Shown here piece after piece: positions 1,587-63,209 of a stretch of DNA of 64,000 nucleotides; within the stretch, counting starts at the first letter, position 1; each line of letters begins with the position of its first letter. The position numbers were made by a program, and so were the translations under genes. The stretch is from a virus (lineage: Duplodnaviria; Caudoviricetes). Location of the stretch: the IMG/VR virus record IMGVR_UViG_3300021363_000005, positions 1,711 to 65,710 of that record; one strand, written 5' to 3'. Below the pieces are notes generated by a model. The model was not told where the DNA came from. It saw only the letters and a list, made by a program, of their open reading frames with translations, and ran no database searches.

Positions 1587-2055
1587 AATGGACTTTCCCG
1601 CTGATCCGATCATCGGCCAGAAGTTCACCAACTCGGTAGGGGTGGTCTACCAGTGGAATGGTACGGCGTGGCTGATCGGCTTCTATGACAGCAGCACCGA
1701 GACCTTCGTCACGGTCGGTGACCTGCTGGATCAGATCCGCACTTTGCTGATGGACACCGACGTGAGCAGCGGCGAGTACCGCTACTCGAGCGACAGCATC
1801 GTCGCTAACATCAACATGGGCCTGATCGAGATGTACCGCATCCGGCCCGACATCTTCCTCGAAAACAACTTCCACATTCCGTCGTTCAACGATGCCGATC
1901 TCAGTCAGCCGCTGGTGATCGAGCAGCAGTTCATTCCATCGCTGGTCTACTACGCCGTCGGCATGTGCCAGCTGCGCGACGACGAGGAAACACAGGATGC
2001 CCGGGCGTCGAGTTTCCTTGGCAAGTTCTCGTCGATGCTGGTCGCCGTGGCCTGA
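1579..2055 (+). CDS. putative head-tail adaptor protein
   Basis: Starts MAEMDFP at 1579. Pattern LLDQIRTLLMD...RYS...IRPD...LVYY resembles podophage adaptors; position in the virion module. Confidence 0.55.
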   Translation: MAEMDFPADPIIGQKFTNSVGVVYQWNGTAWLIGFYDSSTETFVTVGDLLDQIRTLLMDTDVSSGEYRYSSDSIVANINMGLIEMYRIRPDIFLENNFHIPSFNDADLSQPLVIEQQFIPSLVYYAVGMCQLRDDEETQDARASSFLGKFSSMLVAVA

Positions 2056-2075
2056 CATTATGTCAAGAGGTTATC

Positions 2076-2696
2076 ATGGCATCTGCTTTTGATCGTGTCT
2101 TCGCCGACGTCCGCAAGGACCTGCCGAGCGTGCCGGATGCGGTCGTGCGGCAGGAGATCTTCCGGGTGATGGACGATTTCACGCAGCGCACCAACATCTG
2201 GCAGGAAGGCACGCCGGTCGACATTCAGCCCAACGTGCAGACTTACAATTTGACGGTGAGTTTCGGCCAGCCCAATCGCCTGATGTTCGTCTACGATGCC
2301 AATGCGGTGACCAAGTATTGGCCAATGCGCGGCATCAGCATGCGCATCCCCGGCGTCCTGCAGCTCTATCAGGCACCGACCAATGCAGCGACATGGATCG
2401 CTGTTATTGCCAAGCGCACTGCCGAGCCGGTCGACCCCGGCACGCTCTATCCAGTGATCGATGATTGGATCGTCGACAAATATGCCGACACACTCGGTCG
2501 CGGCATTCTCGCGCGCCTGCAGTTTGAGCCGCAGAAACCCTATTCCAACCCGATGCTCGCGAGCGCCAACCAGCGAGCGTACATCTCGGGCTGCTCGCTG
2601 GCCCGCGCCAACGACAGTCATGCCAACGTCTACGACGCCCAAAACTGGATGTTCCCGCAGGGCTGGGCGACGGTGACGAGAAAGCCATGGACCTGA
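2076..2696 (+). CDS. putative second adaptor / tail connector protein
   Basis: AGAGG RBS then ATG at 2076. Motifs DFTQRTNIW and GILARLQFEPQKPYSNP; synteny. Confidence 0.5.
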   Translation: MASAFDRVFADVRKDLPSVPDAVVRQEIFRVMDDFTQRTNIWQEGTPVDIQPNVQTYNLTVSFGQPNRLMFVYDANAVTKYWPMRGISMRIPGVLQLYQAPTNAATWIAVIAKRTAEPVDPGTLYPVIDDWIVDKYADTLGRGILARLQFEPQKPYSNPMLASANQRAYISGCSLARANDSHANVYDAQNWMFPQGWATVTRKPWT

Positions 2697-2697
2697 C

Positions 2698-3411
2698 ATG
2701 ACCATTTCCGTCAAACATAAATTCCACTCGGCTAAGGGCGACGGTCCTGACTCGACCTTGGTCCGGCCATCGGCGTGGGACGACGATCACGATTTTCAGA
2801 CGACCAGCACGACGCCCATCGTGCTGGGTCGGCAGACGCCCGGAGCTGGTCCCATCGAGGAGCTGCCGCTCAACGTGCTGTTCCCGGCTGGTGGTGTCCT
2901 GCCGTTTGCCGGGTCGGTGCTGCCGGCTGGCTGGCTGTTCTGCTATGGCCAGTCGGTCAACCAAGTCGACTTCCCAGCGCTTTATGCTGCGATTGGCACG
3001 ACCTACGGTGCCGGGCCGGGCCCGGCGACGTTCGTCATTCCTGATCTGCGCGGCACGGTGGTTGGCGGCAAGTCAAACATGGGCGGTGCGGATCGTGGCA
3101 ACCTGCCCGGCGGTGCCACACTCGGTCAGTATCTTGGTGCGCCATCGGCTGGCGTCAATTTTACTTCGCTCGGTGCGCTCCATACTGATTACGGCAACAT
3201 CGGTTTCCAGCAAACTTTCGGTGCGATCACCACCGGGAACGCGTCAGCCGGCGGCAGTGCCGGTGGCAGTACCTACGCCGTCCTGAACGATCAGGTGACG
3301 GTGGGGGGCTTCACCCGTGTCATTGGCGACTTCACGGTCAGCGTGTTCGGTAGTACGACGATCTCCATCGTTCAGCCGACCGTCATACTGAATTGGATCA
3401 TCAAGACCTGA
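2698..3411 (+). CDS. phage tail collar domain protein
   Basis: PAGGVLPFAG..PAGWLFCYGQ..LYAAIGTTYG..PDLRG and C-terminal QPTVILNWIIKT match the tail-collar family pattern. Confidence 0.85.
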   Translation: MTISVKHKFHSAKGDGPDSTLVRPSAWDDDHDFQTTSTTPIVLGRQTPGAGPIEELPLNVLFPAGGVLPFAGSVLPAGWLFCYGQSVNQVDFPALYAAIGTTYGAGPGPATFVIPDLRGTVVGGKSNMGGADRGNLPGGATLGQYLGAPSAGVNFTSLGALHTDYGNIGFQQTFGAITTGNASAGGSAGGSTYAVLNDQVTVGGFTRVIGDFTVSVFGSTTISIVQPTVILNWIIKT

Positions 3412-3420
3412 GGTGACACA

Positions 3421-3693
3421 ATGTCAAAAGGAAAGACAACCGTGGAGGTTGCGCAGGTTCCTCAATATAGCGACCAGACCATGCGCGAGATGGAGGCGGG
3501 CCGTGAGGCGGCTCGTACGAACGCTGCCGCTCAGGAACGCGCCGATACGGCGCGCACGTTGGAGGCAGCTGAGACCGCAGCAAAGGAAGTTGAAACGCAA
3601 CGGCAACAAGCTGAGGAGAAAATGCGCGTTGTAGCGGAGGCAGAAGCGGCGCATGCCGCCAAAACTTCCTCTGATGCAGCGTCAAGTCTATAG
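3421..3693 (+). CDS. hypothetical Ala/Glu-rich coiled-coil protein
   Basis: GAGG RBS, tight packing in the operon. Confidence 0.6.
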   Translation: MSKGKTTVEVAQVPQYSDQTMREMEAGREAARTNAAAQERADTARTLEAAETAAKEVETQRQQAEEKMRVVAEAEAAHAAKTSSDAASSL

Positions 3694-4368: not shown

Positions 4369-6105
4369 GTGAGCGTGCTCAAGTTCGATAAGTTCGGTGG
4401 AGAAATCCCGGCGCTCGACGAGCGTCTGCTGCCTGATATGAACGCGGTCTACACTGAGAACGCGTTCCTGCAGGCAGGCCGGCTTGAGCCGCTCGCGGCT
4501 GACATTCCGATCCACACTTTGGTCGATCCGACGATGCGCTATGCGTTCCGGATCCCTATCGACAACCCGGGCATCGAGAACATCCTCGACAGCTACTGGC
4601 TAGAGTTTCTTTACGCCGACACTTTCGTCGTGCGCTCGCCAGTCACCGATCAGGCGGATGGCGGTACCTACTACTGGGCCGATGGTAAAAGCCTGCCGGG
4701 CTATACGACCTACAATCGAGTAGCGGCCAGTCAGCCTAATCTTGTGCTGGGCATTCCTCGGCCGGAGCATGCTCCCGGTCTGACGGTGACAGGTGGTGCG
4801 ATCCCGACCGTGACGCGGGCTTACACCTACACATGGGTCTCCGACATCGGTGAGGAGGGTCAGCCCAGCGATCCGACCTTGGCGACCGGCAACGCCAGCG
4901 GCACGTGGCACGTCACGATGACGGCACCAACGCCGGCCGACAAAGCGAACCGGACGCTGACGACGACACGCATCTATCGCACCGAGACCGGCACGGATGG
5001 CAGCGTCGGGTTCTTCTTTGTCGTCGAGCTGCCCATCGCCACGCTCACCTACGATGACATCGTGTCAAGCGACATCGTGGCGAACAGCGAGCAGCTACAG
5101 AGTGAAGATTGGTCGCCGCCACCGACCGACCTTGCGGGCATGGTGTCGATGCCCAACGGCATGGTTGCCGGGTGGCGCGCCAACGAGCTGTGGTTCTGTG
5201 AGCCCTATCGGCCGCATGCGTGGCCGGTCAAGTACATGCTGGGTGTCGAGAGCCCGATCATGGGGTTGGGTACCATCGACCAGAACTGCATGGTCTTGAC
5301 ATCCGGTCAACCCTACGTCGCAACCGGTGTCGATCCTTCGCAGATGGCGCTCAAGAAGGTCCAGCCACTCGAGCCCTGCACGTCGCCGGGATCCATCGTG
5401 CAGACGCCGGGCGGCGTGCTCTATGCTTCGAATAACGGTTTGATCCTGATCGGTCCGAGCGGTGGCACCAACGTCACTCACGATATGATCCGCAAGGACG
5501 AGTGGCTGCGCCTGTTCAACTTGCGCACCTTGCAGGCGTCCTACTTCATGGACGGCTACTACTGCTATTCGAGCGCCATTGACGGTGTGTTCCAGACCGA
5601 CACGTTCCAGATGGACGCGTTTCAACAGGAAAATTACTTCGGCACAATGATCGGTGCGCACATCTCGCAGGATCAGCGCCTCGGCTACATGACGATCACC
5701 TGCGATCAGCCGACCTACAATGTCATGACCGATCTGTGGACCGGCGAGACGTTCGTGCTGCGCAACGGGCAGGTGTTCCACGTCGACCGTCGCCAGTACG
5801 ATCCCAAGCAGAGCTACGTCTGGCGCTCGAAAATCGTGCAGATGCCGTACAAGGACAACTATGCGGCGGCCAAGATTTTCTACGACGTGCCGAATGGTCT
5901 GGCACCGGCTCCGGGCATCGAGCATCTGTTCAAGATGTACGCCGACGGCAATTTGAAATTCACGCGACCGATCCGCAAGTCGGGTGAGCAGTTCCGTCTG
6001 CCGTCCGGCTACAAGGCGGACTTCTTCCAGTTCGAGCTGAGCGGCCAGCTGATGATATTCAACATGCAGATCGCCACGTCGCCGCATGAATTGCGAGGTC
6101 TTTGA
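4369..6105 (+). CDS. tail nozzle / DNA stabilisation protein (P22 gp10-like position)
   Basis: 578 aa, F.GE.P N-terminus, beta-rich (LWFCEPYRPHAWP, YVWRSK, FRLPSGYK); lies just before the ejection proteins. Confidence 0.7.
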   Translation: MSVLKFDKFGGEIPALDERLLPDMNAVYTENAFLQAGRLEPLAADIPIHTLVDPTMRYAFRIPIDNPGIENILDSYWLEFLYADTFVVRSPVTDQADGGTYYWADGKSLPGYTTYNRVAASQPNLVLGIPRPEHAPGLTVTGGAIPTVTRAYTYTWVSDIGEEGQPSDPTLATGNASGTWHVTMTAPTPADKANRTLTTTRIYRTETGTDGSVGFFFVVELPIATLTYDDIVSSDIVANSEQLQSEDWSPPPTDLAGMVSMPNGMVAGWRANELWFCEPYRPHAWPVKYMLGVESPIMGLGTIDQNCMVLTSGQPYVATGVDPSQMALKKVQPLEPCTSPGSIVQTPGGVLYASNNGLILIGPSGGTNVTHDMIRKDEWLRLFNLRTLQASYFMDGYYCYSSAIDGVFQTDTFQMDAFQQENYFGTMIGAHISQDQRLGYMTITCDQPTYNVMTDLWTGETFVLRNGQVFHVDRRQYDPKQSYVWRSKIVQMPYKDNYAAAKIFYDVPNGLAPAPGIEHLFKMYADGNLKFTRPIRKSGEQFRLPSGYKADFFQFELSGQLMIFNMQIATSPHELRGL

Positions 6106-7551: not shown

Positions 7552-9666
7552 ATGACACTCAAGAATGAGATCTTTGAGGGCATCGCTGCCTACAAGGCGC
7601 TGACGCCAACGCCGCAGGACGACTACTACAAATACCGTCTAGGACAGCTCAAGAAAAAACAGAAGGACGACGACGCCGTCACTCAAGGCGCGAAGGACGA
7701 GATCGACGAACAGAACCGGCGGCGTGCTGCGGGCGGTCCGCCGGGCACCCCGGTACCGACGGTTGCTTCGACGGCGATGCCCGGGTCGACACAGACCGCG
7801 CTCAATACGTCGACGTGGGATCCGACCCAGCCGATTGGCCAAGCGAACATGCCGACCGACCAACAGGGTGGCATGATCCATGCGTTCAAGGATGGCGGTG
7901 CGGTCGATGACGAAAGCGATGTTGACCGGCTCGTTGCTCAACTGCTGACTGAAGACCGCGCGCGAGGTCAATACGGTGGCCAGACCTACGGTGGCGAGAC
8001 CCACGGTGGTGCGCAATTCGGCGGCAATAAATTTGGCGGCAATAAGTTTGGTGGTGCGCGGTTCGGTGCCAGCAGCCCCCCTGATGAGCCGCCGCCTAGT
8101 ACGCCCGAGCGGCCTACGCCTACGCCCCTGCCTACTCCTCCGGCAGAGCCCAGCACGCCCGAGGAACGCGAGCGTGCGATCTGGGGTCAGGAGTCAGTCG
8201 ACCGAGCGAATGCCGCGCGCGACGCGGCGATGGCTACCGTTCGACGCGGCCAAGCCGTTCGACCGATGCCGGGGGAGGATCGTGCCTTCGCAGCGGATTG
8301 GCCGCCCCGGGATGATCGTGAGCCTCCACCCTCGGATACGGTTCCTTCAGCACCGGGGTTCGAGGGCGCGCAACCTTACGCTCCTATCGGCACCACCACT
8401 CCGGGCGAAGCAGCAATGGCGGCGCGCAGGGCGTTTTTTCCGCCGACCTCGCCGCGAGTAGAGCCGCCCCCTGCGCCGGTCGGTGCCGGGGCGGGTACAG
8501 CAGCGGGTCAGCAGGTTGCCGCCGCCGCTCCGCAGCCAGCTGCGCCAGCGCCGCCAACTCCTCCATGGACGCAGCAGCGGTCGCAGCCTTCGCTGGGCGT
8601 ACCGACGCAAGCATTGAGCACGACGCCCCCGTCGTCTCCTGCACCCGCGCCCGCGCCCGCGCCGGCCCCCGCGAGACCGACTGGCCCCACCGGGACGGCA
8701 AGCACACCGGCACCGCCGCCGACGGCAGGTGCTGCCAACGCGCCAAGCACTGCTCCGAAGGGGAGCCTAGCCGATCAGTCGCGGGTGACGGCGTTCGACC
8801 CAACGGCCGATCTCAACGATCCGCGCAACGCGCACCGCGTCGACCAGAGCGGGGCGACGGTCATGCCCACCCAGCAGGACATGCACGCCGTGCTGAATGC
8901 TGGGCTGCAGGCAGCACCGGGTGGCGGAGCTCAACAGCCGCCGCCGGGTCAAGGAGCGGTGTCACGCCCGGTGTTCAACCAGTGGGTCGACGCGCACAAC
9001 CAAGGTGGGCGGTTGACATCCGGTCAAGCCCTCATGGTCGGCATGGTTGGTAAGTACAAAGTTTTGTTGAGCCAAGGTCGCCAAGCCGAGGCGTCGCAGA
9101 TGGCATGGGGTCTCATTCAGGCGGCCAATCTCGAGGCCGCGTCGTGGGGCGACGTCGCTAAGGACCAAATCCATGCGAACAACCTGCCCGGTGCGGTGGC
9201 CAGCATCGCCAAGGCGGCCGATCTTAGCCCGGACGGAATGCACCATCGTCCGAGCCCCGATGGACGGTCGATTGAGACCTACGATAACAACGGCAAGCTG
9301 ACAGCGACGACGCCGATGGATGGCCGGATGGCGCTGGCGGCGGCGATGGGTCTGCAAGATGGCACGCTGATGTGGGCGGCGCTGCAGAGCACCGTCGCGT
9401 CGACCCAGAAACCCGACAGGAATGCCGAAGGACGGCAGCTCACCAACGACCTGCGTCGCCAGCAGATTGAGGGCGCACGCCTGCGTAATAAGAAGCTGGC
9501 ATCTGCCGGGACCGGTGGCGGCGGCGGCGGGTCCGCTGCCGGTGCGGAGTTGGCGGCGCTGTTCGGGCAGACTAATGCGTCGGCTCATGTTGCCGGTCCA
9601 CCGCAGGGTGGTGGCGAAGACGACAGTTGGATTGACCGAGAGACCACAAACCCACCGGATGAATAG
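7552..9666 (+). CDS. internal virion / ejection protein, Pro-rich
   Basis: 704-aa ORF in the ejection cluster; FKDGGAV motif. Confidence 0.55.
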   Translation: MTLKNEIFEGIAAYKALTPTPQDDYYKYRLGQLKKKQKDDDAVTQGAKDEIDEQNRRRAAGGPPGTPVPTVASTAMPGSTQTALNTSTWDPTQPIGQANMPTDQQGGMIHAFKDGGAVDDESDVDRLVAQLLTEDRARGQYGGQTYGGETHGGAQFGGNKFGGNKFGGARFGASSPPDEPPPSTPERPTPTPLPTPPAEPSTPEERERAIWGQESVDRANAARDAAMATVRRGQAVRPMPGEDRAFAADWPPRDDREPPPSDTVPSAPGFEGAQPYAPIGTTTPGEAAMAARRAFFPPTSPRVEPPPAPVGAGAGTAAGQQVAAAAPQPAAPAPPTPPWTQQRSQPSLGVPTQALSTTPPSSPAPAPAPAPAPARPTGPTGTASTPAPPPTAGAANAPSTAPKGSLADQSRVTAFDPTADLNDPRNAHRVDQSGATVMPTQQDMHAVLNAGLQAAPGGGAQQPPPGQGAVSRPVFNQWVDAHNQGGRLTSGQALMVGMVGKYKVLLSQGRQAEASQMAWGLIQAANLEAASWGDVAKDQIHANNLPGAVASIAKAADLSPDGMHHRPSPDGRSIETYDNNGKLTATTPMDGRMALAAAMGLQDGTLMWAALQSTVASTQKPDRNAEGRQLTNDLRRQQIEGARLRNKKLASAGTGGGGGGSAAGAELAALFGQTNASAHVAGPPQGGGEDDSWIDRETTNPPDE

Positions 9667-10793: not shown

Positions 10794-13700
10794 TGCAGAA
10801 CGAGTTCACCAAGCCGGGATTTCTGTCAGGCATTCGTGATCCGACCGAGGCGGCACCGGAAGACACCAACACGCGGTCGTGGGGGCAGTTCGGTGCCGAT
10901 ACGGCGATTGGTCTGGCCAAGCCGTTGGTCGGCGCAGCGCGCACGGTCACGCAGGGCGCTCGCATGGGTCTCGACGAGCTGCCGCCGGAGGCTCGACCGG
11001 AGTGGTTGGGTGACGCGGCACATGGTCCGGTAGCTGACGTCGACCGTTCGCTGGGCAGCGCCGAGAAGTGGCTCGACGATCAGCGTTCGGCGCGTGACAA
11101 GGCGCTCGACACTGACTCGCCATTTCCCGGTCCTGACCAGCGCAGCTTCTGGCGGGAGCCGATTGCTTCGACCGTTCATCAGATAACGCCGCTCATTCCG
11201 ATGGTGGCGGGTGCGGTCCTGACCGGCGGCACCAGTTTAGCGGCGCAGGCTGGCGTGGCGGCGACGTTCGGTTTGCTGGGTGTCGGCTCGTCGCTCAGCC
11301 AGTTGCGCGATGCTTCCGAGCAAATGCCAATCGATGAACTTAGAAAGTTACCGCAGTACCAAGAGTTCAATGGCGACGAGCAGGCTGCCCGCAACAAGGT
11401 GTTCAAGGACTCGGTCGATTTGAAAACCGAGGCGGCGACGTTCATCGTGAATGGAGCGACGTTCGGTGCCTTCTTGCAGGGCATCGGCAGTCCGGCCAAG
11501 AAGGCGCTGGCGCAACGTCTCAAGAGCATGCTGATCGGCGGTACGGAAGGCGCTGGCATCGGTGCGGCGCAAGGTGCTGTCAGCTCCTACGGCGAAGAGC
11601 TGGGTAAGGTTCGGCGTGGCGAGCAGGAGAGCATTGACCCCGCCAAGGTGGCGGAGAGCACTGAGAGCGGCACGGCGTTTGGTCTGCCGATGGGGCTGCA
11701 CCATTTCGTTTCACCGCACAGACCCGGCCAGAAACCGTCTGAGGAACCACCGGCACCGACGTCGACGCCGCTTGACACCGATGTTAAGAGCGTCGCAACG
11801 CAGGCGCTGCAGACTGACACACCGCCTCCTGAGCCGACGATGTCGCCGTTCGGCGGCGACACGGGCGTACCCGGTCCACAGCAAGCGCCCAGTGCGCCGT
11901 TGCCGCCCGAGTTTCCCAACATCGAGCGGCCCGGTCTCCCGCAGCCCGGCGACTTTCCCCCAAGTAGCTCGCCGGGTCCGCCGCCTCCACCTGCCGGACC
12001 GTCTCCCCCAATTCCCGGTGCCGGTGGTGGAGGTGGCGGTGCTCCTCCTGTTGGCGGTGCGCCGATGTCGACGCGTTCGCGGACGGGCGTGCCCGGACCG
12101 GCACGCGCGCCGACCGAGCCGCTGGCCCCACGTTTTGCTGAGATCGAGCGCCCGGGGTTGCCCAGCCCCGGCGACTTCGGTGCGGAACCAGAACCGGCTG
12201 TGCCGAGTTCTCCTGTCGCGGCACCGCGCCCTGCCCCCGCTGAAGCTGCGGTGGCCGCCCCGGCTCGACCGGCTCCTGTTGTGGCACGGGAGGAGCCGGC
12301 GGCCGGGCCTACTGCGGCTCGAGTTGCCGCGCGTGAAATCCCACAGGGTGGCGGTGAAGGTGTAACTCCCGGTGTAACTCCGGAGGTTAGACAGGAAGCA
12401 CGTGCTGAGCCGCGTCGTGAGACGACGATCACGCCCGGTGCCGAGACGGCCATCGCGCCTGTCACGCAGCGTGCCGAGCATGCGCCGGTCACCTTGGGTG
12501 AGACGCTGTCGGAAGAAGCGCAGGCTCACATGGCGCGGGCACGCGAGCAGGCCGAGACAGCCCAGAACGAACGCAACGCTAAGACGGTTGCCGCGCGCAC
12601 CGGCCGGACGATGGAGCGCACCGGCAAGGTCAAGACCGGCGTCGAGCGGGCGCTCGAAGTCGCGCTCAAGGCGTGGAAGGCGAGCAAGGAGAAAACTGCC
12701 GAGGGCTGGCAGACGCTGCGCCGGCAGGCGATCAACGTCGAAGCAGGGCGGGTCGCGGCCGGGCTCAGGGCCAAGGGGTACCTGAACCAGATCGGCGAGC
12801 GGCCGGTGACACCGGGTGGCGTCGCGCGGGAAGTCGAGCGCATTCGCACCCGTGGTCAGCCGCGCAAGGCACCGGCAGCCGATACCAACGAAGTCCTCAC
12901 GCCCGAGGAAGTGAGTTTTGCCAACCGGCTCGACGAGCTGCATCGGCGGATCACGCCGGACATGCCGCAGCTGCAGTACCGCGCCACCATCCGTCCGATG
13001 CTGGCTGAGGCACGCCGGCTCGACGCGGCTCGCCATGAGAACGGCCAGCCGGCGATTTTCGAACGGGCACTGCCCAAGCCGCCGGGCATCGCGCGCTCGC
13101 TCGAACATCAGTTCAACGATCATGCCCACCGGCTGGAATTGCTGCGTCATCTGTCGCCGGACGAGTTTGCCAATTCCGAAGTCGTGCGCTCGACCCTGCA
13201 GAAGATGGCCGACATCAACGAGAAACGCGTCCCGCAGCGCGCGATCATGCGGCCGACAGAACCTGAGATTGACACGGTGTCAGGCCAGCTTGTGCGCCGC
13301 GAACAGCCGCCCGAGCCCACGGGGTTCCGCCCGCAGCCACACACCGAGTACCGCCCGTTGCCGACGCCCAGCTGGGTATCCGAAAAACTGGCGCAGGCGC
13401 ACACCCAGACCGCACCGTCGATCATCGAGCACCAGCCCTACGCCGAGGCTGTCGCGTCCTTGGCAGGCCGCCAGTACCCCCGCCTGCCGGCGCAGCTGCC
13501 GACGGGCACCGCTGAGGTTAGGCGCATGCGGTCCGAGGCGACGGCGGCCGGGCAGCGGCATGACGTCGGCACGGTCTATCCGCAGGGTGCAGCGACGCCC
13601 GGTAGGGGCAAGGAGCGGCCGCTGACGTCGGCTCAGTTCGAACGGGAGCAGGAGGCGCATCGCGTCAAGACGGCAGCCGGCACGCCGCACGGCGAGGAGC

Positions 13701-20280: not shown

Positions 20281-20291
20281 GAGGGCTTGAC

Positions 20292-39103: not shown

Positions 39104-39120
39104 CTCCTCTTGACATTGTG

Positions 39121-41545: not shown

Positions 41546-41572
41546 GATACTCTCCTGTTAACATAATGTCAA
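41544..41572 (-). promoter_or_regulatory. sigma70-like promoter whose -35 is an arm of motif A
   Basis: TTGACA (41572-41567) - 17 bp - TATCAT (41549-41544). Confidence 0.5.
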
Positions 41573-49075: not shown

Positions 49076-49215
49076 TCAGCTCTCCTGTTTACTTGACATG
49101 ATGTCAGATGGAGTGGTGCAAAGTCCATGGCGTCAAAAGCAATACACGGCACATCGACGTGCGCCACTACGGGGGAGTGGGAGCGCACGTCGATGGCCAT
49201 TGGCATCACCTCCTT

Positions 49216-49857: not shown

Positions 49858-49993
49858 TTTACTTATCCTTCTTGTTGTGTCCGAACAGCGTTCGGATGGC
49901 GACCACGGCAATGATGGTGCCGCAGATCATTGAAAGGGCAATCAGCCCGCTGATACTCATAATTTCCTCCTTGACATAATGTCAGGAGAGAAA

Positions 49994-51371: not shown

Positions 51372-51413
51372 TCGGTGTCCTTTCGTGGTTTGAAAGCATT
51401 GACACGATGTCAA

Positions 51414-51442
51414 ATCATAACTCCGGGGGTTAATGATGTCAA
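51414..51442 (-). promoter_or_regulatory. near-consensus sigma70 early promoter; motif B in the spacer and motif A over the start site
   Basis: TTGACA (51442-51437) - 17 bp - TATGAT (51419-51414). Confidence 0.8.
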
Positions 51443-51449: not shown

Positions 51450-52120
51450 ACGTACATTAGAATGTTTCTAATGTACATTCGTGTTGTGCGGCAAGCTCGA
51501 TTGCCCCTGACCGGCACGATTTACACGGCACATGCGGTCGGCAAATAGTTTTCATTTGATGATAAGCGAGCGGCCAAGTGATGAGCAGCTCATGTTAAAT
51601 AGAAAAATCGCTTATCATGAACCCTTTAATATCAACGGGTTAGGGGATGATAAGGATGATAAGGAGGGTTTTGGTGCACATAGCCCCAACTATTCTTCAA
51701 CGGGGAGTTTAAGTGACTACTATTAGTTACTTAAACTCCCCGTGAGATCACATGTCGGCTGTATACGTCGTTTATCCTCCTTATCTTCCTTATCATTACA
51801 TTGGTAAGTTCCGGAGGAACTTCCCATTAACCCAAGCTATCCCGTAAGTGCCGGATAATATGAGACTATTAGACACAATCATATATCGGAACACACAGTT
51901 TTCCTTATCATGATGATAAGGAGGATGATAAGGATACAATGGAAAGTTTGGCTTATCTGCCGCCCTTGCTGGCCCTAACCATGTCAAGTAGAAACTTACT
52001 ATTAAACAAATTCCTACTTACCATGTCAAGTAGAAACTTACTATTAAACAAATTCCTACTTACCATGTCAAGTAGAAACTTTCCACTTGACATTGTGTTA
52101 AGTGGTAACTCCCGGAGTTA
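51450..52120. other. putative replication origin / non-coding control region
   Basis: AT-rich and gene-free; GATAAG repeats in both orientations; 20-bp stem at 51700-51743; 11-bp inverted repeat at 51452-51476. Confidence 0.55.
51978..52081. repeat. 42-bp tandem repeat, about 2.5 copies
   Basis: ACCATGTCAAGTAGAAACTTACTATTAAACAAATTCCTACTT at 51978 and 52020, partial copy at 52062. Confidence 0.95.
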
Positions 52121-52237: not shown

Positions 52238-52249
52238 CGCGGTAAGTTT

Positions 52250-53002
52250 TCAGTTCACGCTCTGAGACTGGGCGCTGCCTTCGAGCTGCGCCTTAAGCTG
52301 CGCCATCTCGTCGGCCGCAGACAGGCCGGTCTCGCCGTCGGCGACTTCGCACGCCTTGACGAACGCCTCGCACGCCTGAACAACGGCGAGCATTGCGATA
52401 CGCTGGCGCGGCTTCGCCTTGATGGCTTCGAGCGCCACCTTGTCCGACTTGGCGACGCGTTCGTCCGACGTTGTCGAAAGCCACCGCTTGGCTAGCGTCA
52501 AGGCAGGGTTCTCGTCTGCCTTGGAAACCGGATTGAGGATGGCGTCAAGCTCGACGTCGTTCGGCTTCGTGGTCGGATGCTTGTCCATCACCTTGCGGAC
52601 CTTGGCCCCGCGAACGGTATAGGACTGCTTGTCCAACTTGGTCGCCTTCTCGACGATGTCGCTCATATCGTAGGCAGCGAACCGCCCCGCGTCTGCGAAC
52701 GCACCGAAAGCGGATGCCCAAGTCTTAACCGAATTTTCGGAAAGCTCCTTGCGCATGCTGCCTTCGCCCGACCGGAAAGGCGTATTGAACGCGTCGAAAA
52801 TCTTCGCCGTATCAATGTCGCCGTTCACCTTGTTCTGCCGATGGGCAACGCCAACGGCGAACATGAAAGCGGCGAACCGCTCGAATACGGACAGGTCCGT
52901 AAGATTGCCCGTGCCGATCTCGGCCGCTGCCTTGATGATGGCCGCCTCTGATTTCAGGCTTTTGGCGTCGTACTTGCTGATATCCAACATTTTCGTCTCC
53001 AC
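52250..53002 (-). CDS. ~250-aa helical hypothetical protein, monocistronic (paralog of 48326-49075)
   Basis: GGAG RBS favours ATG at 52990; two motif A copies upstream; own terminator. Confidence 0.7.
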   Translation of the reverse strand: METKMLDISKYDAKSLKSEAAIIKAAAEIGTGNLTDLSVFERFAAFMFAVGVAHRQNKVNGDIDTAKIFDAFNTPFRSGEGSMRKELSENSVKTWASAFGAFADAGRFAAYDMSDIVEKATKLDKQSYTVRGAKVRKVMDKHPTTKPNDVELDAILNPVSKADENPALTLAKRWLSTTSDERVAKSDKVALEAIKAKPRQRIAMLAVVQACEAFVKACEVADGETGLSAADEMAQLKAQLEGSAQSQSVN

Positions 53003-53181
53003 ATGTTATTGACTTGATGTCAATGGGAGCGGCGCTCCCTACCCTACGTCAAGTGTAATCAAAAGTATTGACTTGATGTCAACGGCGAGCCGCCACCCCG
53101 GAGATGGACACGGCCGGGGTGGGGTAGTGTCGGCTTAGGGGCTTCACAAATCTGGGTACGTGTTTTTTCGGTTCTTTCCTC

Positions 53182-53210
53182 TTGACATCGCTAACCGCCG
53201 GGGTTAAGCT
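53182..53210 (+). promoter_or_regulatory. sigma70-like rightward promoter with motif B in the spacer
   Basis: TTGACA (53182-53187) - 17 bp - TAAGCT (53205-53210). Confidence 0.7.
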
Positions 53211-53292
53211 TCTCCCACCCGCGAAAAAGCGCCATTGACATTATGTCAAGAGGTACTTATCTGCTTCACGTGGCATATGGAGATGTTTGTAA

Positions 53293-59890: not shown

Positions 59891-60993
59891 ATGGCACGAG
59901 AGAATGGCGACGCAGATGGTGGCGACCGCGCTCCCTTCCTGAAGGGTGGCACTACGCCGATGCACAGCCCGCAAGGCACCGGCACGCAGACGCCGGGCAA
60001 GAGTTCGCAGGAGGGGTCGAGCGCCATCGGTTCCAGTCAGGACGCGCAGGCAGGACCGCCCGGCGTTGCCGGGTTCAGTGACGCGGCGACCAACAAGGAC
60101 CATGCCGGCACGCAGGTGCCCGGTCAGTCGGCGCAGAAAAAGTCGAGCAACAACCAGTTTGCCGAGGGCGGTAAAACGCCGATGTTCGGCAATCGCGGCT
60201 CGTTGCCGGCGCGCGGCGGCTACACCACGCCGGGTTAAGCCATGGCGCTTAACAAATCGGGACTGCCACCGATGAAACGTCCGGTCGTCGCCGCTGAGCG
60301 ACCGGGCGGTTTCGGCACGGTGAAACCGGGTAAGCCGGCACTCGACATGGGTTCCAACATCGCTCAGCCACCGGGTAAGTTGAAAGGCATCCCGGCGCTG
60401 GCGCGCGGCGGCAAGCTCGGACCGAGCCTGCCCAAGATCGCCAAGATCCCGACCATCAAACCTCCGAAGTTTTAATGAAACCGGCACCCAATTACGGCCC
60501 GCCCAAACTTAATCCGCTGACTGACCGTTTGACATTAAGTCAAGGCGACGTGCAGCTGCCTAATCGCGCGGCGGTGAACCAGCTGACCAAGGGCAACCCG
60601 GCGCAGCGGTCGTATCAGAACTACGCCAAGCTCGCGTCCAGTGGGGCGAACGCGCCGATGACTTACCAGAGCATCATCGACATGGCTTCAATGGGGGCTT
60701 CGGTGCTACCGAAATGAATGGCTACCAACCCTTTGTCCGAGATCGTCATGGCGGCGGCCCAGCTCAAGGCGGCTGCGCCGTCGTTTTATCAAGCGTTGTG
60801 CGATGCCATGCGCGCCTACGAGGTGCAGGCCATCGCTGAAATTCTGGCCAGCGACGTGCCGCACGAGATGTTCCGCGCGCAGGGTAAAATCAAAACTGTC
60901 CAGCAGCTCAGGAAACACCTGAACGAGTGCACCGAGCTGCGCGAGACCTACACCCGGAGAGACGCCAATGCCCGACCCAACCCCGCTGGTTAG
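59891..60993 (+). CDS. four small head-module genes (59891-60238, 60242-60475, 60475-60717, 60718-60993)
   Basis: Coupled ORFs; the last has the FRAQGKI..QL pattern common between portal and scaffold. Confidence 0.55.
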
Positions 60994-62089
60994 CACGCCG
61001 TCGCCACCTGACGGGGTCGATCCCAACGTCAAGCTGCCGCCCAGCGTCATGGCATCGAGCCGGCTGGCGATGGAGGCGCACCAGCGCATGTATCCTAACG
61101 GGCAGAATGCGCCGTCGCCTGAGCAGACCCCCGCGCCCAACGGTGAGCCGCCAGCGATCACGCAGGAACCGCCCGCCGAGTTGCCGGATGTCAACGCCGA
61201 CGGCACGCCCAACTGGGAGAACCGCTTTAAGGCGCTCAAGGGCCGCTACGATGCCGACAGCCGGCGCTGGGGCGAGACGCAGCAGCAGTACGACCAGCGC
61301 ATGCGCGACCTCTCGCAGGAGAACAATCAGCTCAAGCAACCGCCGCTGCCCGGCGCGGGCGAGATGCCCAAGCTGGTCACCGCCAAGGAGGTCGAGGATT
61401 ACGGCGCGGACCTGATCGACGTCATCAAGCGCGCGGCGCAGGAGGCGGTGATGCCGCTGCTGACGCCGCTGGCGACATCGATGGGACAGGTGCAGGCGCG
61501 TGTCGAGACGACAGAAAAAGAAACCAGTCGGCAGTTCCTGCAGCGCATGCACGGCAACATGGACAACGCCGTGCCGGGGTGGAACGAACTCAACAAGGAT
61601 GCGAATTTCATTGCGTGGACCAAACGCAACGACATATATTCCGGCCTTAACCGGCAAGAGATGCTCCAGAGGGCGTGGTACGCAGGCGATAGCAACCGTG
61701 TCGCAGCCTTCTTTCAGGGGTTCCTTGCAGAGGAGGCTGCCACTGACCCGGCAGCGGCCGAGGCCCGCCAGCAGGCAATGGGAGCTGCGTACGGGGGACA
61801 CCCGCAACCTAACGGTTCGGCTGCTCCTACCGCGCAACAACCCGCCCCTCGCGTGACCCTCGAGTCGCTGGCGGCTCCCGGCAGGGCCCGAGCGGCTGCA
61901 ATGCCACCCGCAGGCAAACCCGTTTGGACGGCTGCCGGCATTTCGCAATTTTACATGGACATCGCTGCCGGCAAATTCCGTGGACGGGATGCAGAGCGCA
62001 TCGCGACCGAGGCCGATCTCATGGCGGCCCAGCGCGAAGGACGCATCCAGATTAACCCTCGCACGGCGACCCAGCTCGGCGGCAGTTGA
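60968..62089 (+). CDS. capsid scaffolding protein
   Basis: WENRFKALKGRYD coiled coil, VPGWNELNKDANFIAW, C-terminal AAQREGRI; directly before the capsid gene. Confidence 0.75.
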   Translation: MPDPTPLVSTPSPPDGVDPNVKLPPSVMASSRLAMEAHQRMYPNGQNAPSPEQTPAPNGEPPAITQEPPAELPDVNADGTPNWENRFKALKGRYDADSRRWGETQQQYDQRMRDLSQENNQLKQPPLPGAGEMPKLVTAKEVEDYGADLIDVIKRAAQEAVMPLLTPLATSMGQVQARVETTEKETSRQFLQRMHGNMDNAVPGWNELNKDANFIAWTKRNDIYSGLNRQEMLQRAWYAGDSNRVAAFFQGFLAEEAATDPAAAEARQQAMGAAYGGHPQPNGSAAPTAQQPAPRVTLESLAAPGRARAAAMPPAGKPVWTAAGISQFYMDIAAGKFRGRDAERIATEADLMAAQREGRIQINPRTATQLGGS

Positions 62090-62132
62090 CGTATAGGTCA
62101 ACAGGCTCCGGCGGTTGCCGCAGGAGCCTGCC

Positions 62133-63146
62133 ATGGCCGTTTATCCTCTCGCTGGTTCGGGCACCGTCCCGCCGATTTTCCCCACCGGTTCGCTTACCCC
62201 CGCTCCCGCTTACTCGCATACCGTCATCCCAGAGATCTGGTCAGGCAAGCTGATCGAGAAGTTTTACGCCTCGACCGTGCTGGCTGCGATCTCCAACACC
62301 GCCTACGAAGGCGAGATCAAAAATCAGGGCGACACGGTGCATATCCGCACCAAGCCCACCATCACCATCAATGACTATCTGGCCGACGGCGGCATCGTGG
62401 TGGAGCGCCCGAGCTCCAACATCGTCGACCTGCTGATCAACAAGGGCAAATACTTCGCCACCATCCTCGACGACGTTATGGAGACGCAGTCCGATCTCAA
62501 CCTGCTCGGCATGTGGAGCGACGACGCCGCTCAGCAGATGAAGATCAAGATCGACGCTGACGTCCTGCTCGGTCTGCTGGGCGGAGCCGACGCGGCCAAC
62601 CGGGGCGCGACCGCCGGCAAGATTTCCGCCAGCCTCAACCTCGGTATCACCGGTACCCCGGTTGCCATTTCCCGCACCACCGGCACCCCGGCTTCCTCGG
62701 TGTCGATCCTCGACATGCTGCTGCGCATGGGACAGGCGCTCGACGAGCAGAACGTCCCCGAGGAGGGACGCTGGTGCGTCATCCCGTCGTGGGCATCGAC
62801 CAAGATCAAGCAGTCCGAATTGCGGCAGGCGTATCTGTCGGGCGACAGCGTCTCGATGCTGCGCAACGGCCGGCTCGGTCAAGTCGACCGCTTCACCATC
62901 TACGTGTCCAACCTTCTGCCCAAGGGTCCAGTGACCGGTCCTCCGGTGCTGGCAGCGGGCGAGTGGGTGTTCTACGCAGGCCACGCGCACGGCCTCACCT
63001 TCGCCAGCCAAGTCTCCAAGGTCGAGACGCTGCGTTCTGAGTTCACCTTCGGCCAGATCCTGCGCGGCTTGCAGGTCTACGGCTACAAGGTGGTCGATCC
63101 GATTGCGATCTCGCAGGCGATTGTCACCCCGGCAGTGGGCGACTAA
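62133..63146 (+). CDS. major capsid protein
   Basis: IPEIWSGKL..FY..TV...ISNT.YEGEIK..GDTVHI, GR.G.VDRF.IYVSN, RGLQVYG.KV; AGGAG RBS. Confidence 0.9.
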   Translation: MAVYPLAGSGTVPPIFPTGSLTPAPAYSHTVIPEIWSGKLIEKFYASTVLAAISNTAYEGEIKNQGDTVHIRTKPTITINDYLADGGIVVERPSSNIVDLLINKGKYFATILDDVMETQSDLNLLGMWSDDAAQQMKIKIDADVLLGLLGGADAANRGATAGKISASLNLGITGTPVAISRTTGTPASSVSILDMLLRMGQALDEQNVPEEGRWCVIPSWASTKIKQSELRQAYLSGDSVSMLRNGRLGQVDRFTIYVSNLLPKGPVTGPPVLAAGEWVFYAGHAHGLTFASQVSKVETLRSEFTFGQILRGLQVYGYKVVDPIAISQAIVTPAVGD

Positions 63147-63209
63147 CCCCCGGAGTTAGACCGCTTGACATAATGTCAAGCGGTCAACTTCCTCTTAACG
63201 GGGGGCGCG

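Follow-up and report, generated by a model that had tools for sequence, protein, structure and literature searches.

A dispersed 15-base palindrome in an uncultured soil podophage and its counterparts in related phages

Results

The analysed window of 64,000 nucleotides covers nearly the whole 65.7-kb (65,710-bp) genome of an uncultured soil podophage, whose closest named relatives are the Rhizobium phages RHph_TM27A/B. Genes were called with a heuristic of our own, which predicts 93 of them, and the placement figures given below depend on these calls. A 15-base palindrome of the form TTGACA-N3-TGTCAA is dispersed along this sequence in 10 perfect copies, compared to a mean of 0.01 and a maximum of 1 in 100 dinucleotide shuffles, and in 30 copies if up to one mismatch is permitted (shuffled mean 0.07, maximum 1). 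A scan of the full genome with up to two mismatches adds just one site, to a total of 31, and finds none in the 1,710 bases beyond the window. There is also one variant with a two-base spacer, TTGACATATGTCAA. The dispersed palindrome is thus confirmed, in the numbers (about 31 copies, 10 of them perfect and about 20 with one mismatch) and in the excess above chance that a preliminary description had claimed. Its fuller consensus has the 7-N1-7 form TTGACAT-N-ATGTCAA, and the fall-off with mismatches is steep, with 28 perfect, 43 one-mismatch and 3 two-mismatch sites when three genomes of this type are pooled.

The placement of the sites (Table 1) departs strongly from random. At least half of the site is non-coding in 18 of the 30 copies (random mean 2.7, maximum 9 in 10,000 draws), and equally 18 sites are centred within –10 to +60 nt relative to a predicted start (random mean 3.1, maximum 10), with the start codon located 17–25 nt from the palindrome centre in many cases. 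In agreement with the context described previously, the motif contains the start ATG at 3413, 20287, 47265 and 50606 and abuts a ribosome-binding site at 2052, 35978, 39110, 41558 and 49971. Nine sites are fully contained within predicted genes, whereas 60 synonymous-codon shuffles averaged 0.9 and never exceeded 3, and the copies reported for the primase-like gene, the helicase, the giant ORF and 4369–6105 were all recovered, the last of these genes being labelled 'internal virion protein' in PHROGs and not nozzle as proposed. The early and replication half holds 22 of the 30 sites, as it does 21 of 29 in the relative G007 and all 15 in G001, and sites cluster at a divergent control region.

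Table 1. Palindrome sites and associated features in window coordinates.
Feature	Coordinates	Strand	Description
Site	2052..2066		1 mismatch (C at position 1); intergenic; motif-GAGG-ATG, gene start 2076
Site	3413..3427		1 mismatch; contains ATG 3421 of ORF 3421-3693; syntenic G007 site
Site	5054..5068		1 mismatch; within gene 4369-6105
Site	5296..5310		1 mismatch; within gene 4369-6105; same orthologous codons in G007 (47806)
Site	9013..9027		1 mismatch; within gene 7552-9666
Site	13269..13283		1 mismatch; within giant ORF 10793-19423
Site	15390..15404		perfect; within giant ORF; identical 15-mer at G007 ortholog position (59110)
Site	20287..20301		1 mismatch; contains ATG 20292; identical 15-mer syntenic in G007 (2861)
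Site	23336..23350		perfect; within primase-like gene 22863-25829; retained in G007 (7738)
Site	28553..28567		1 mismatch; within helicase gene 27648-29129
Site	29604..29618		perfect; intergenic; 5' of minus-strand gene with start 29586
N2 variant TTGACATATGTCAA	31617..31630		arm is -35 of promoter-like TTGACA-16-TATTAT, minus strand
Site	33120..33134		perfect; after terminator-like hairpin (33164-33149, minus), before endolysin-like gene 32522-33091
Site	35978..35992		1 mismatch; motif-GGAG-ATG, minus-strand gene start 35967
Site	38352..38366		perfect; extended arms CCAC/GTGG; 5' of gene 36772-38307
Site	39110..39124		1 mismatch; motif-GAGGAG-ATG, minus-strand gene start 39097
Site	41558..41572		1 mismatch; arm is -35 of promoter-like TTGACA-17-TATCAT (minus strand)
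Site	42868..42882		1 mismatch; within predicted gene 42659-43126
Site	44708..44722		perfect; within predicted gene 44688-44879
Site	45719..45733		1 mismatch; intergenic
Site	47265..47279		1 mismatch; contains ATG 47271 (minus strand) of gene 47068-47271
P1 (second candidate binder)	48326..49075	-	249 aa; helical; lysine-rich tail
Site	49093..49107		1 mismatch; immediately 5' of 249-aa gene 48326-49075
Site	49971..49985		1 mismatch; motif-GGAGG-ATG, minus-strand gene start 49960
Site	50606..50620		perfect; contains ATG 50612 (minus strand)
Site	51399..51413		perfect; abuts -10 of best sigma70-like promoter; identical 15-mer in G007 (30401)
Promoter-like TTGACA-17-TATGAT	51414..51442	-	11/12 matches; palindrome B in spacer
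Three tandem 42-bp repeats	51982..52071	-	each TTGACA-17 nt-TTTAAT; sigma70-like promoter by eye, not among matches of sigma70-like promoter scan
Site	52087..52101		1 mismatch; extended arms CCAC/GTGG; shortly upstream of tandem repeats
P2 (candidate binder)	52250..52990	-	first leftward early gene; 246 aa; all-helical
Site 'pal1'	53009..53023		1 mismatch; between ribosome site of 52250-52990 and conserved element of control region
Site 'pal2'	53068..53082		1 mismatch; other side of conserved element, adjoining conserved GCCAC..GGAGATGGACA block
Promoter-like TTGACA-17-TAAGCT	53182..53210	+	rightward; by eye; palindrome B in spacer
Site	53235..53249		perfect; ~25 nt past -10 of 53182..53210; 5' of gene 53293-53772
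Site	60529..60543		1 mismatch; intergenic; 5' of gene starting 60550
Site	63165..63179		perfect; tip of stem GACCGC/GCGGTC past capsid gene

In a comparison with relatives whose portal proteins are 75–91% identical to that of the window phage, we find at least eight palindrome types, each relative carrying its own dispersed palindrome. The TTGACAT-N-ATGTCAA type is shared by the window phage, G003, G007 and L154. G001 contains TTAACAG-N-CTGTTAA (15 sites, all at 20.3–40.3 kb), G002 CCTTATAT-NN-ATATAAGG, G004 and L153 GCGAACTTTAAAGTTCGC, L170 and L160 TTAACATCGATGTTAA, L161 and L168 TGAGTTTTAAAACTCA, L166 GGAGTTTCGAAACTCC and L157 a palindrome with the centre CCTTTAAAGG. These motifs occupy equivalent places, with a pair bracketing the conserved element of the divergent control region and others located just 5' of the ribosome sites of early genes. 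In the divergent control region, the flanking blocks are kept in all 13 loci compared and the palindromes alone are swapped, two copies being present in nine loci and one in the remaining four. Likewise, homologues of the gene at 48326–49075 in G003, G004, G001 and G007 are each preceded by the palindrome of the respective phage, and the site at 63165 has syntenic counterparts in G007, G004 and G002, the latter in its own motif. The occurrence of a different palindrome per relative at the same kinds of places points to binding sites of what would be a fast-evolving phage protein.

Within the same type, sites are retained at orthologous positions in G007 and G003, including within genes. Ten site pairs between the window and G007 keep 12 of 12 specified bases in six cases and 11 of 12 in the other four, despite diverged flanks, whose ungapped identity amounts to 18–35 of 90 positions in seven intergenic and 54–71 of 90 in three in-gene pairs. 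Three of six mappable in-gene sites reside at the same codons in G007, while G001 and G002 show 3–7 mismatches there. The genomes share about 70% nucleotide identity and the early region is strongly mosaic, with 46 of the 93 predicted genes lacking a match in G007 and far fewer matching other relatives. Gene blocks of the window phage and G007 are arranged in different order, with sites often found at cassette borders. One metagenome variant carries a 22-nt insertion immediately adjoining site 49093.

The promoter-like sites of this family use (CCAC)TTGACA as –35 element. In the window, a well-spaced –10 in gene direction follows 2 of 30 sites and the N2 variant, compared to 4 of 29 in G007, one of them a 12/12 match, and 1 of 12 in G003. 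Among the three sites previously proposed to have such a –10, it was found at 31630 and 41572, where sites 31617 and 41558 provide the –35 of promoters matching the consensus at 11 of 12 positions each, whereas the site at 53235 remained below the threshold of the scan. Site 51399 lies directly next to the –10 of TTGACA-17-TATGAT and would thus cover the expected transcription start. In G004, a promoter of the same type, TTGACA-17-CATACT, lies 4 nt ahead of the different palindrome that this phage carries. The overlap of several sites with sigma70-like promoters suggests that they act as operators or roadblocks, but about 25 of the 31 are found away from any recognisable promoter, and a repressor does not directly account for these.

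Most of the candidate binders named earlier do not withstand the comparison. The LuxR/GerE protein at 39121 has a homologue in no relative, not even in G003 that shares the motif, and the HTH protein at 41746 is almost unchanged across phages with very different palindromes. The look-alike proteins P1 and P2, named along with them as paralogs, are still the best candidates. P2 has a hypervariable positional homologue in every relative. In all 14 loci with enough upstream sequence, a gene of 230–290 residues is found divergent from a conserved 159-aa gene, at a spacing of 230–330 bp, or of about 730–770 bp in G002 and L168. Among 12 positional homologues, the ten most similar pairs all belong to phages with the same or a similar motif, and the neighbouring 159-aa protein is 58–81% identical in these cases. 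As the P2 gene adjoins sites used for typing, this association could reflect plain linkage. P2 proteins of the TTGACAT type are 27–47% identical between subgroups, which is no higher than to G001 or L170, whose motifs are related but different.

The predicted P2 homodimer reaches an ipSAE of 0.71 (best control 0.00), with at least 73% of contacts common to the runs and a partner pLDDT of at least 75. The calibration mark was attained by 20 of 30 proteins solved as same-chain pairs and 1 of 23 solved as single chains, counts that apply only roughly here since P2 was modelled with an alignment of our own. P2 has no match in Pfam or PHROGs, and a Foldseek search returned nothing at E ≤ 0.001. Its best VIA Z of 6.9 equals helical-bundle background, with no recognisable DNA-binding fold. 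P1, a distant look-alike of P2, has homologues in all five large relatives (G001–G004, G007), and members of its family possess tails rich in lysine and alanine, as non-specific DNA binders do. P2 is the best candidate for the putative binder, perhaps acting together with P1.

Discussion

Our results suggest that the palindromes act in cis as double-stranded DNA sites for a phage-encoded homodimer with phage-specific preference that would serve as repressor and roadblock, an account that we consider about as likely to be right as wrong. The homodimer would read the palindromes as duplex, and its sequence preference would differ from one close relative to the next. For transcription, the phage apparently relies on host sigma70-type promoters with (CCAC)TTGACA as –35, and at some of these the bound dimer may cover the –35 and spacer or the start site. 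By also occupying the short gaps preceding most early gene cassettes and a few in-gene places, it could switch off or pace transcription in both directions. The earlier proposal of a dimeric protein binding across the genome receives indirect support from the swapped palindromes, their kept positions, their symmetry, the lack of strand bias, the near absence of compensatory change and the weak hairpins. Binding by protein is deduced from sequence patterns, and a repressive effect of occupancy as well as the specific role in silencing, roadblock or DNA organisation are further steps of inference.

Protein-bound sites could instead serve genome organisation, condensation, replication, partition or DNA protection, in the manner of dispersed centromeres or operators such as the KorB sites of IncP plasmids or the SopB sites of phage N15. 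Such a non-transcriptional role would accommodate the majority of sites off recognisable promoters, the nine in-gene sites, some of them kept at the same codons, and the tails of P1-family proteins, and it corresponds to the view that the authors of the Cluster O study express on their own palindrome (PMC4351075). We nevertheless regard it as unlikely in light of the concentration of sites in the early and replication half, their clustering at the divergent control region, a promoter overlap that is commoner than an even scaffold requires and the lack of any ParB-, KorB- or SMC-like gene among 31 of the 93 proteins scanned with Pfam or PHROGs. A hairpin in RNA preceding the ribosome-binding site, read in a sequence-specific manner by an RNA-binding protein or endoribonuclease of the phage, would cause the mRNA of each cassette to be cut, stabilised or translationally controlled. 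For comparison, Cas6 or Csy4 reads the hairpin of CRISPR repeats and T7 uses RNase III sites. The prevalent order motif-SD-ATG near starts fits this assumption, as does the possibility of a 6–7 bp stem with a 3–4 nt loop in all eight types and the identity of the palindrome RNA from either strand, which suits both transcription directions. Extra flanking complementarity is found at 38352, 52087 and 63165, and with longer flanks the folds at 38352, 63165 and 49971 reach –15.1, –22.2 and –10.5 kcal/mol, the flank of the latter pairing with the SD. The location of 63165 on a terminator-like stem together with its flank complementarity hints at some structural role. However, bare hairpins (–3.4 to –5.9 kcal/mol at three sites) do not exceed shuffled sequence in stability (z –0.35 to –1.6), and symmetry extends through the centre (UUAA, UCGA, T.A, G.C) in six of eight types, at loop positions where a hairpin does not need it. 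Among 71 sites, 43 deviate from the consensus arms, of which 12 could retain G-U wobble pairing, while one of three two-mismatch sites is compensated. Deviations are distributed without strand asymmetry relative to transcription (20 in the 5' against 23 in the 3' arm, p = 0.76). Moreover, conserved in-gene sites would cut or block essential mRNAs, and pal2, upstream of a conserved promoter-like element, may be untranscribed. On the basis of the central symmetry, the few compensatory changes, the absence of strand bias and the weak bare hairpins, we favour duplex DNA that would be bound by a phage-encoded homodimer, and give the RNA element only a small chance.

Lower still is the probability we assign to a spread or homogenisation of the palindromes by recombination, as cassette-boundary linkers or small selfish elements comparable to REP elements or the promoter-stem-loop cassettes of T4-type phages, where a dedicated binder is unnecessary. 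The mosaic early region, the reordered gene blocks frequently bounded by sites, the complete site sets that differ by lineage as under concerted evolution and the insertion adjoining site 49093 would agree with such an origin. Unlike in random decay, 22 of the 43 deviations fall on the outermost base pair and none on the core, a profile characteristic of binding sites, and core-gene sites are kept at the same codons across genomes, two copies hold fixed places around the conserved element in nine of 13 loci and no transposase-like gene was noticed among the genes scanned. The nucleotide identity of about 70% is too low to resolve homology breaks at the sites. Since each arm equals the TTGACA of the family promoters, with CCAC context on both sides at 38352, 52087 and G003 20463, the sites might also be host sigma70 –35 boxes, constituting promoters (possibly bidirectional) or decoys or sinks for RNA polymerase in the absence of a phage-specific binder, and a few sites do have a well-spaced –10. 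This we find very improbable, as about 25 of 31 sites lack a –10, the downstream information remains at or below 0.6 bit over 40 nt with a small peak that corresponds to the SD and nothing else conserved, and start codons are frequently too near for a transcript initiated from such a –35. In addition, the GCGAACTTTAAAGTTCGC, CCTTATAT..ATATAAGG and GGAGTTTCGAAACTCC motifs of relatives do not resemble –35 boxes, whereas neighbouring TTGACA boxes are unchanged.

For the dispersed palindrome, the closest precedent is the symmetric 17-bp palindrome of Cluster O mycobacteriophages, compared to 15 bases in the window phage. Since symmetric dispersed repeats of this kind are already in print for Cluster O (PMC4351075), the novelty previously claimed for such sites was too strong. 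What is new is the comparative result, that each relative carries its own dispersed palindrome at equivalent places.

A palindrome dispersed across the genome

In the 64-kb window, the palindrome TTGACA-N3-TGTCAA is found in 10 perfect copies, compared to 0.01 in dinucleotide shuffles, and in 30 copies with up to one mismatch (10 perfect and 20 carrying a single mismatch), compared to 0.07, an excess that was claimed in the preliminary description and that is far beyond chance. The coordinates and contexts described there for the sites could all be confirmed. Allowing for two mismatches over the whole 65,710-bp contig adds only one extra site, and a copy with a two-base center (TTGACATATGTCAA, the N2 variant) is located at 31617. 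Since the inner bases are also conserved, we define the element as TTGACAT-N-ATGTCAA (TTGACATGATGTCAA as duplex), with near-invariant inverted arms and a free central base.

The sites, here named by their start coordinate, show a distinct placement with respect to genes, which was quantified using heuristic gene calls (93 predicted genes). At least half of the sequence is non-coding in 18 of the 30 sites (random mean 2.7, maximum 9 in 10,000 draws) and the center is located between –10 and +60 nt from a predicted start in 18 of 30 (random mean 3.1), with three sites straddling a start and four holding an ATG within the palindrome. Nine sites reside wholly within genes, compared to a mean of 0.9 and a maximum of 3 in 60 synonymous-codon shuffles. 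The majority (22/30) is found between 23.3 and 53.3 kb, in a leftward region where a stop codon is usually followed by the palindrome, a Shine-Dalgarno sequence and the ATG, and three sites are contained in the 300-bp divergent region separating the first leftward from the first rightward gene.

In metagenome contigs covering 33300-53290, the 40 base differences listed, to which 314 further ones add, all fall outside the sites. Two structural variants were observed in these data, a 22-nt insertion directly beside site 49093 (window 49090) in the soil-metagenome run X5 and the replacement of 41638-41748 by 10 other letters in variant X4. An exact-motif scan of IMG/VR with TTGACATNATGTCAA returned, among the matches listed, only single and scattered ones. 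Scans of the window for Rfam families and tRNAs gave no match, and no RNA runs were listed as holding the stretch.

The phage and its relatives

The phage is represented by a single contig, of which the window comprises bases 1711-65710. Its first and last approximately 180 bases (window 1-200 and contig ends) are near-identical, which reflects a terminal repeat or the overlap of a circular assembly; G007, a relative, is classed as carrying direct terminal repeats. Gene content is podovirus-like, the morphotype being read from the genes. According to heuristic gene calls, the structural genes form a rightward block that begins at about 53.3 kb, passes the contig end and reaches 22.7 kb, whereas the leftward block between 53.0 and 22.7 kb consists of about 55 genes, most of them small. 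The giant ORF shares 25–47% identity with its counterparts in relatives, has no sequence match in Pfam or the PDB and may encode an ejected protein or a virion RNA polymerase. No match was obtained in a 12-kb megablast search of a phage collection. Among named phages, the closest relatives are the Rhizobium phages RHph_TM27A/B, TM29 and TM3_14A with a portal identity of 57%, contigs holding DNA of the window originate from soil metagenomes, and the host is probably a soil alphaproteobacterium. Since a portal search detected no relative inside any of 185,579 species genomes of bacteria and archaea and no integrase was found among the 31 proteins scanned against Pfam or PHROGs, the phage looks virulent.

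Features of the window discussed in the text
Feature	Coordinates	Assignment
Portal	57659-59875	PHROGs
Large terminase	55617-57068	PHROGs
Family-A DNA polymerase	33270-35225	PHROGs
Helicase	27648-29171	PHROGs
Primase-like protein, 988 aa		PHROGs
Internal virion protein		PHROGs
Giant ORF, 2,876 aa	10793-19423	
Conserved 159-aa protein	53293-53772	
P1, 249 aa	48326-49075	
P2, 246 aa, first leftward early gene	52250-52990	
GerE/LuxR protein	39121-39384	Pfam (2.1e-17)
XRE-like protein, 96 aa	41746-42036	
HicB/Arc-like protein	45585-45950	
Second palindrome, copies of 15 bp each	29807, 51418, 52106, 53192, 57092, 63144	
Stretch without predicted gene, 880 bp	51372-52249	
Element between control-region palindromes (minus strand)	53024-53067	
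Conserved non-coding block	53083-53180	

Close relatives carry different palindromes

Relatives were gathered via the portal protein and by alignment of the conserved 159-aa protein, the latter because a search of IMG/VR with this protein alone gave no match. Every lineage contains its own over-represented palindrome, with steep mismatch histograms in each genome. Relatives with 75–91% portal identity carry different palindromes at equivalent positions. Following the capsid gene, the window palindrome sits on a GACCGC/GCGGTC stem, and the related genome G002 displays its own palindrome on a GACCCG/CGGGTC stem. In G004, whose capsid is 92% identical to that of the window, a TTGAC-type palindrome is found at this position despite the different dispersed motif of this genome, a sign of mosaic exchange.

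Over-represented palindromes in the window and in related genomes and loci
Genome or locus	Palindrome	Copies
Window	TTGACAT-N-ATGTCAA	30
G007 (61.6 kb, complete)	TTGACAT-N-ATGTCAA	29
G003	TTGACAT-N-ATGTCAA	12
L154, L155, L122	TTGACAT-N-ATGTCAA	
L159	GTTGACA-N3-TGTCAAC (related form)	
G001	TTAACAG-N-CTGTTAA	15, all in 20.3-40.3 kb
G002	CCTTATAT-NN-ATATAAGG	15
G004, L153	GCGAACTTTAAAGTTCGC	13 in 26 kb
L170, L160	TTAACATCGATGTTAA	
L161, L168	TGAGTTTTAAAACTCA	
L166	GGAGTTTCGAAACTCC	
L157	Center CCTTTAAAGG	
RHph_TM27A	GTTACCT-N4-AGGTAAC	44 (at most 3 mismatches)

Within one motif type, sites are retained. Between G007 and the window, which are collinear, 47 of the 93 predicted proteins of the window match. 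In protein alignments, three of six mappable in-gene sites (5296, 15390 and 23336) are found at exactly orthologous codons in G007, and the equivalent positions in G001 and G002 contain 3–7 mismatches. A rough synteny map places a G007 site within 120 bp of 15 of the 29 testable sites; in the early region, where sites are dense, some of these pairs could result from chance, which does not hold for those at 3413, 5296, 20287, 23336 and 63165, and the pair at 15390 was confirmed by protein alignment. In ten pairs between the window and G007, all 12 specified bases are kept in six and 11 of 12 in four, and the identity of the ungapped flanks amounts to 18–35 of 90 positions at seven intergenic and 54–71 of 90 at three in-gene pairs. 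With about 70% nucleotide identity between the window and both G007 and G003, the sequences are too diverged to decide on recombination break-points at the sites.

Palindromes are swapped within a conserved control region

The exchange can be seen in the divergent control region, which we have compared side by side in 13 loci. Starting from the leftward gene, all 13 share the same order, in which gene start, ribosome site and palindrome copy 1 are followed by a conserved block (TTACACTTGACATAGGGTAGGG and variants), palindrome copy 2, a second conserved block (GCCACGGGGGAGATGGACA) with about 60 more conserved bases and a sigma70-like promoter (CCACTTGACA-17 nt-TATAAT-like) preceding the 159-aa gene. 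The blocks are conserved across the 13 loci and the palindromes alone are swapped, in place, with at least eight palindrome types found on this one scaffold. Both copies are present in nine loci and a single copy in four, their number varying in G001, G003, L154 and close relatives of G007.

A non-coding block of this region (GCCAC..GGAGATGGACA, a GC-rich stretch and TTAGGGGCTTCA.AAATCTGGG) is conserved in 13 of 13 loci though the flanking palindromes differ; it has no Rfam match and could constitute an origin, a packaging signal or a small RNA. A further conserved element, TTACACTTGAC(A/G)TAGGGTAGGG, separates the two palindromes a short way upstream of the first early gene and contains a –35-like TTGAC with no –10 at 16–18 bp. 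We take its core (...GAC.TAGGG) to be loosely reminiscent of promoters of single-subunit phage RNA polymerases, and no gene for such a polymerase was recognized. In G002 (L139 ~8330-8900) and L168 (~1560-2030), an extra ORF of about 150–190 residues separates the rightward promoter from the 159-aa gene and looks, by eye, like an insertion of the homing-endonuclease type.

Probable recognition as DNA duplex

A palindrome could act as a DNA site or as a hairpin in the transcript, and we have thus analyzed the deviations from the consensus in 71 sites of three genomes oriented by local gene direction. The 43 arm deviations are distributed evenly over the 5' (20) and the 3' arm (23; p = 0.76), with 22 affecting the outermost pair and none positions 4, 12 and 14. 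Only three sites in the three genomes carry two mismatches, one of which is compensated, which is the single compensated pair among 74 sites. In six of eight palindrome types, the dyad symmetry continues through bases that would form the loop of a hairpin. As RNA, the plain sites 29604, 35978 and 23336 are not more stable than shuffled sequences (–3.4 to –5.9 kcal/mol, z –0.35 to –1.6), and stable folds are only obtained with extra complementary flanks, as at 38352 (–15.1 kcal/mol), 63165 (–22.2 kcal/mol) and 49971 (–10.5 kcal/mol). Apart from these three sites with longer flanks, the folded sites have stems no more stable than chance, pairing is not maintained by compensatory changes, and the RNA of the sites matches no Rfam family. 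Some structural use is possible at a few extended copies, but the profile of deviations, symmetry and folding points to a two-fold symmetric protein that reads two half-sites on duplex DNA.

Since each arm equals TTGACA, the –35 hexamer of the host sigma70 promoter, the sites might themselves be promoters. The two top matches in 24.6-44.5 kb (11/12 each) indeed have their –35 in an arm of 41558 in one case and of the N2 variant in the other, G007 contains four such cases, including a 12/12 match at 21052, and G003 contains one. When searching for a –10 hexamer 16–18 bp past the TTGACA arm, only 41558 and the N2 variant pass, and about 6 of the 31 palindromes are in contact with a promoter-like sequence. 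No base except for the ribosome site is conserved downstream of the motif, and most copies are therefore not promoters themselves. Other sites adjoin transcription signals. The best sigma70-like match of the early region (TTGACA-17-TATGAT, 51442-51414) is directly followed by site 51399, which begins at the base next to the –10, the same conserved promoter type in G004 (TTGACA-17-CATACT) is followed after 4 nt by the palindrome of that genome, and site 33120 succeeds a terminator-like hairpin. The TTGA...TCAA letters are also common to boxes of the FNR/FixK type (TTGAT-N4-ATCAA), whose spacing, as had been pointed out in the preliminary description, differs (TTGA-N6-TCAA compared to TTGA-N7-TCAA). 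A site for a host factor is unlike what is found here, because relatives hold unrelated sequences at the same places.

A stretch of 880 bp (51372-52249) has no predicted gene, tRNA or Rfam family and displays a long inverted repeat at 51452-51476 and three 42-bp tandem repeats (51982-52071), each of which contains, by eye, TTGACA-17-TTTAAT; site 52087 is located shortly upstream of these repeats. The genomes also contain a second dispersed palindrome, TAACyyC-N3-GrrGTTA, with 6 (window), 16 (G003) and about 25 (G001) copies, which is far more conserved between relatives than the first. It either occupies the spacer of sigma70-like promoters, its end then being part of the –10, or lies 2–6 nt before an ATG, where its GGAG/GGGG is able to serve as ribosome site, and four of its six copies in the window lie within 45 bp of a site of the first palindrome. 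RHph_TM27A carries its abundant palindrome at positions of these kinds, and by placement this palindrome thus looks closer to the second element.

Candidate binding proteins

A binder that determines specificity should change with the motif, and most of the candidates named in the preliminary description do not stand up to the comparison. The GerE/LuxR protein was found in the window genome only, with no homologue in G001-G004 or L147-L170, including G003, whose early region is wholly covered and whose motif is common with the window, and it was rejected. The XRE-like protein contains a helix-turn-helix that is near-identical across phages with TTGACAT, TTAACATC and GCGAACTTT motifs, and the protein is missing in G001, a complete genome, and in G002, a nearly complete one, which disqualifies it as specificity determinant. 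The HicB/Arc-like ribbon-helix-helix protein is a possible but not universal candidate, its short form having matches of 54–56% in G003 and G001 and none in G002. The 159-aa protein, with 64–66% identity in all types and a near-invariant C-terminal helix region, cannot set specificity because it is conserved across all palindrome types. No ParB-family gene was found among the 31 scanned of the 93 predicted proteins.

The families of P1 and P2 are contained in all large relatives as helical proteins of about 250 residues with no family match. A gene encoding 230–290 residues occupies the first leftward position in 14 of 14 loci with enough sequence, and these positional homologues of P2 share 14–46% identity with the protein of the window, grouping into clusters plus singletons in BLAST. 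The ten closest P2 pairs all have the same or a similar palindrome, with their 159-aa neighbors being 58–81% identical. A model of the P2 homodimer reaches an ipSAE of 0.71, compared to 0.00 for the best control, and passes a mark that was attained by 20 of 30 proteins solved as same-chain pairs and 1 of 23 solved as single chains; these counts are a rough calibration for P2, because an alignment of our own was used. Homodimer runs have at least 73% of contacts in common at a partner pLDDT of at least 75, and the predicted symmetric interface comprises residues 159–216, leaving the N-terminal domain free. Foldseek searches with P1 and P2 returned nothing at E ≤ 0.001. For the candidates of about 250 residues, a wide VIA search gave a best Z of 6.9, which is within background, a search of the ESM Atlas only unnamed viral clusters and a profile search of 5.8 billion proteins 12 hypothetical proteins. 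Because there is no fold match, relatives are only hypothetical proteins and the identity within one motif type is as low as 27–34%, we regard P2 as a candidate binder.

Relation to known systems

In the Streptomyces phage phiC31, which is temperate, a known repressor binds conserved inverted repeats (CIR), palindromic operators with many copies throughout the genome, some of them at promoters and some elsewhere. The palindrome described here resembles CIR in having many copies throughout the genome and in the location of some copies at promoters, whereas our phage looks virulent and its binder is only a candidate.

The closest precedent is the 17-bp palindrome 5'-TGTTCGG-NNN-CCGAACA of Cluster O mycobacteriophages, for which 34 sites are described in Corndog, comprising 14 intergenic ones, 10 close to the 5' ends of genes and 10 within genes (PMC4351075). 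There, the repeat is denser in the leftward arm of phages that are not obviously temperate, and the authors predicted a dimeric DNA-binding protein with no function being named, considering a role in transcription initiation unlikely (PMC4351075). We use this type of repeat as a descriptive class and not as a homologous family. Shared with our case are an N3 (or N1) center, more than 30 copies per genome, a mixture of intergenic, 5'-end and in-gene sites that are denser in the leftward non-structural region, a location of most sites away from predicted promoters and no sign of lysogeny (PMC4351075). Conversely, the sequences are unrelated, the hosts are Actinobacteria instead of a probable soil alphaproteobacterium, the phages are siphoviruses whereas the genes here are podovirus-like, and one repeat is common to the five Cluster O phages whereas the palindromes of our relatives differ (PMC4351075).

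The stoperators of Cluster A phages such as L5 and Bxb1 are similar in comprising tens of near-identical sites throughout the genome, mostly in short intergenic gaps, with a consensus that differs between sub-lineages together with the repressor (PMC4351075, in part, and general background). On the same basis, stoperators are asymmetric sequences of 13–14 bp that are oriented with transcription and bound by the immunity repressor of temperate phages, whereas the sites here are a 7-N1-7 palindrome with no orientation bias (20 compared to 23, p = 0.76), and no relative was detected inside the bacterial and archaeal genomes searched.

Implications

Taken together, the sites are probably recognized by a phage DNA-binding dimer. 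That they are operators of a phage-encoded homodimer, which would act on transcription by the host polymerase and whose specificity would be re-coded between relatives, is the most likely of the more detailed readings, and one for which we see even chances. Dispersed palindromes of this kind are already known, having been in print for non-temperate phages since at least 2015 with no function assigned (PMC4351075). In the literature searched, in which papers on Cluster O and on Cluster K were the only relevant ones among the listings read, we found no description of a lineage-specific replacement of such palindromes and nothing in print on RHph_TM27A; within this reach, the re-coding of an entire family on one fixed scaffold is new.

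A further-reaching and rather unlikely scenario is that these apparently virulent soil podophages carry 'immunity groups', consisting of P2 as homodimeric DNA binder and its matching operators, which would be replaced wholesale between relatives as a result of conflict. P2 would in this case be a hypervariable, first-expressed early protein with a fold not yet seen, whose specificity would be matched by 15–45 operators throughout the genome, both being swapped between close relatives. The exchange might be driven by co-infecting relatives, if a resident binder silences an incoming genome of the same code, or by host defences directed against the binder or its site. If true, this would constitute a repressor-operator identity system that operates in lytic infection and not in lysogeny.

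The many close relatives with different palindromes on one scaffold offer a natural experiment with no counterpart in Cluster O, and the binder should therefore be findable as a protein that co-varies with the motif, and an exchange of binder and sites among the types would make it possible to test the function. Should the sites serve as operators for an early regulator that evolves fast, they would show how a whole genome-wide regulon is re-coded, and would provide a new DNA-binding fold and orthogonal repressor-operator pairs for engineering. If they instead serve another process, they would point to an unknown step of phage development.
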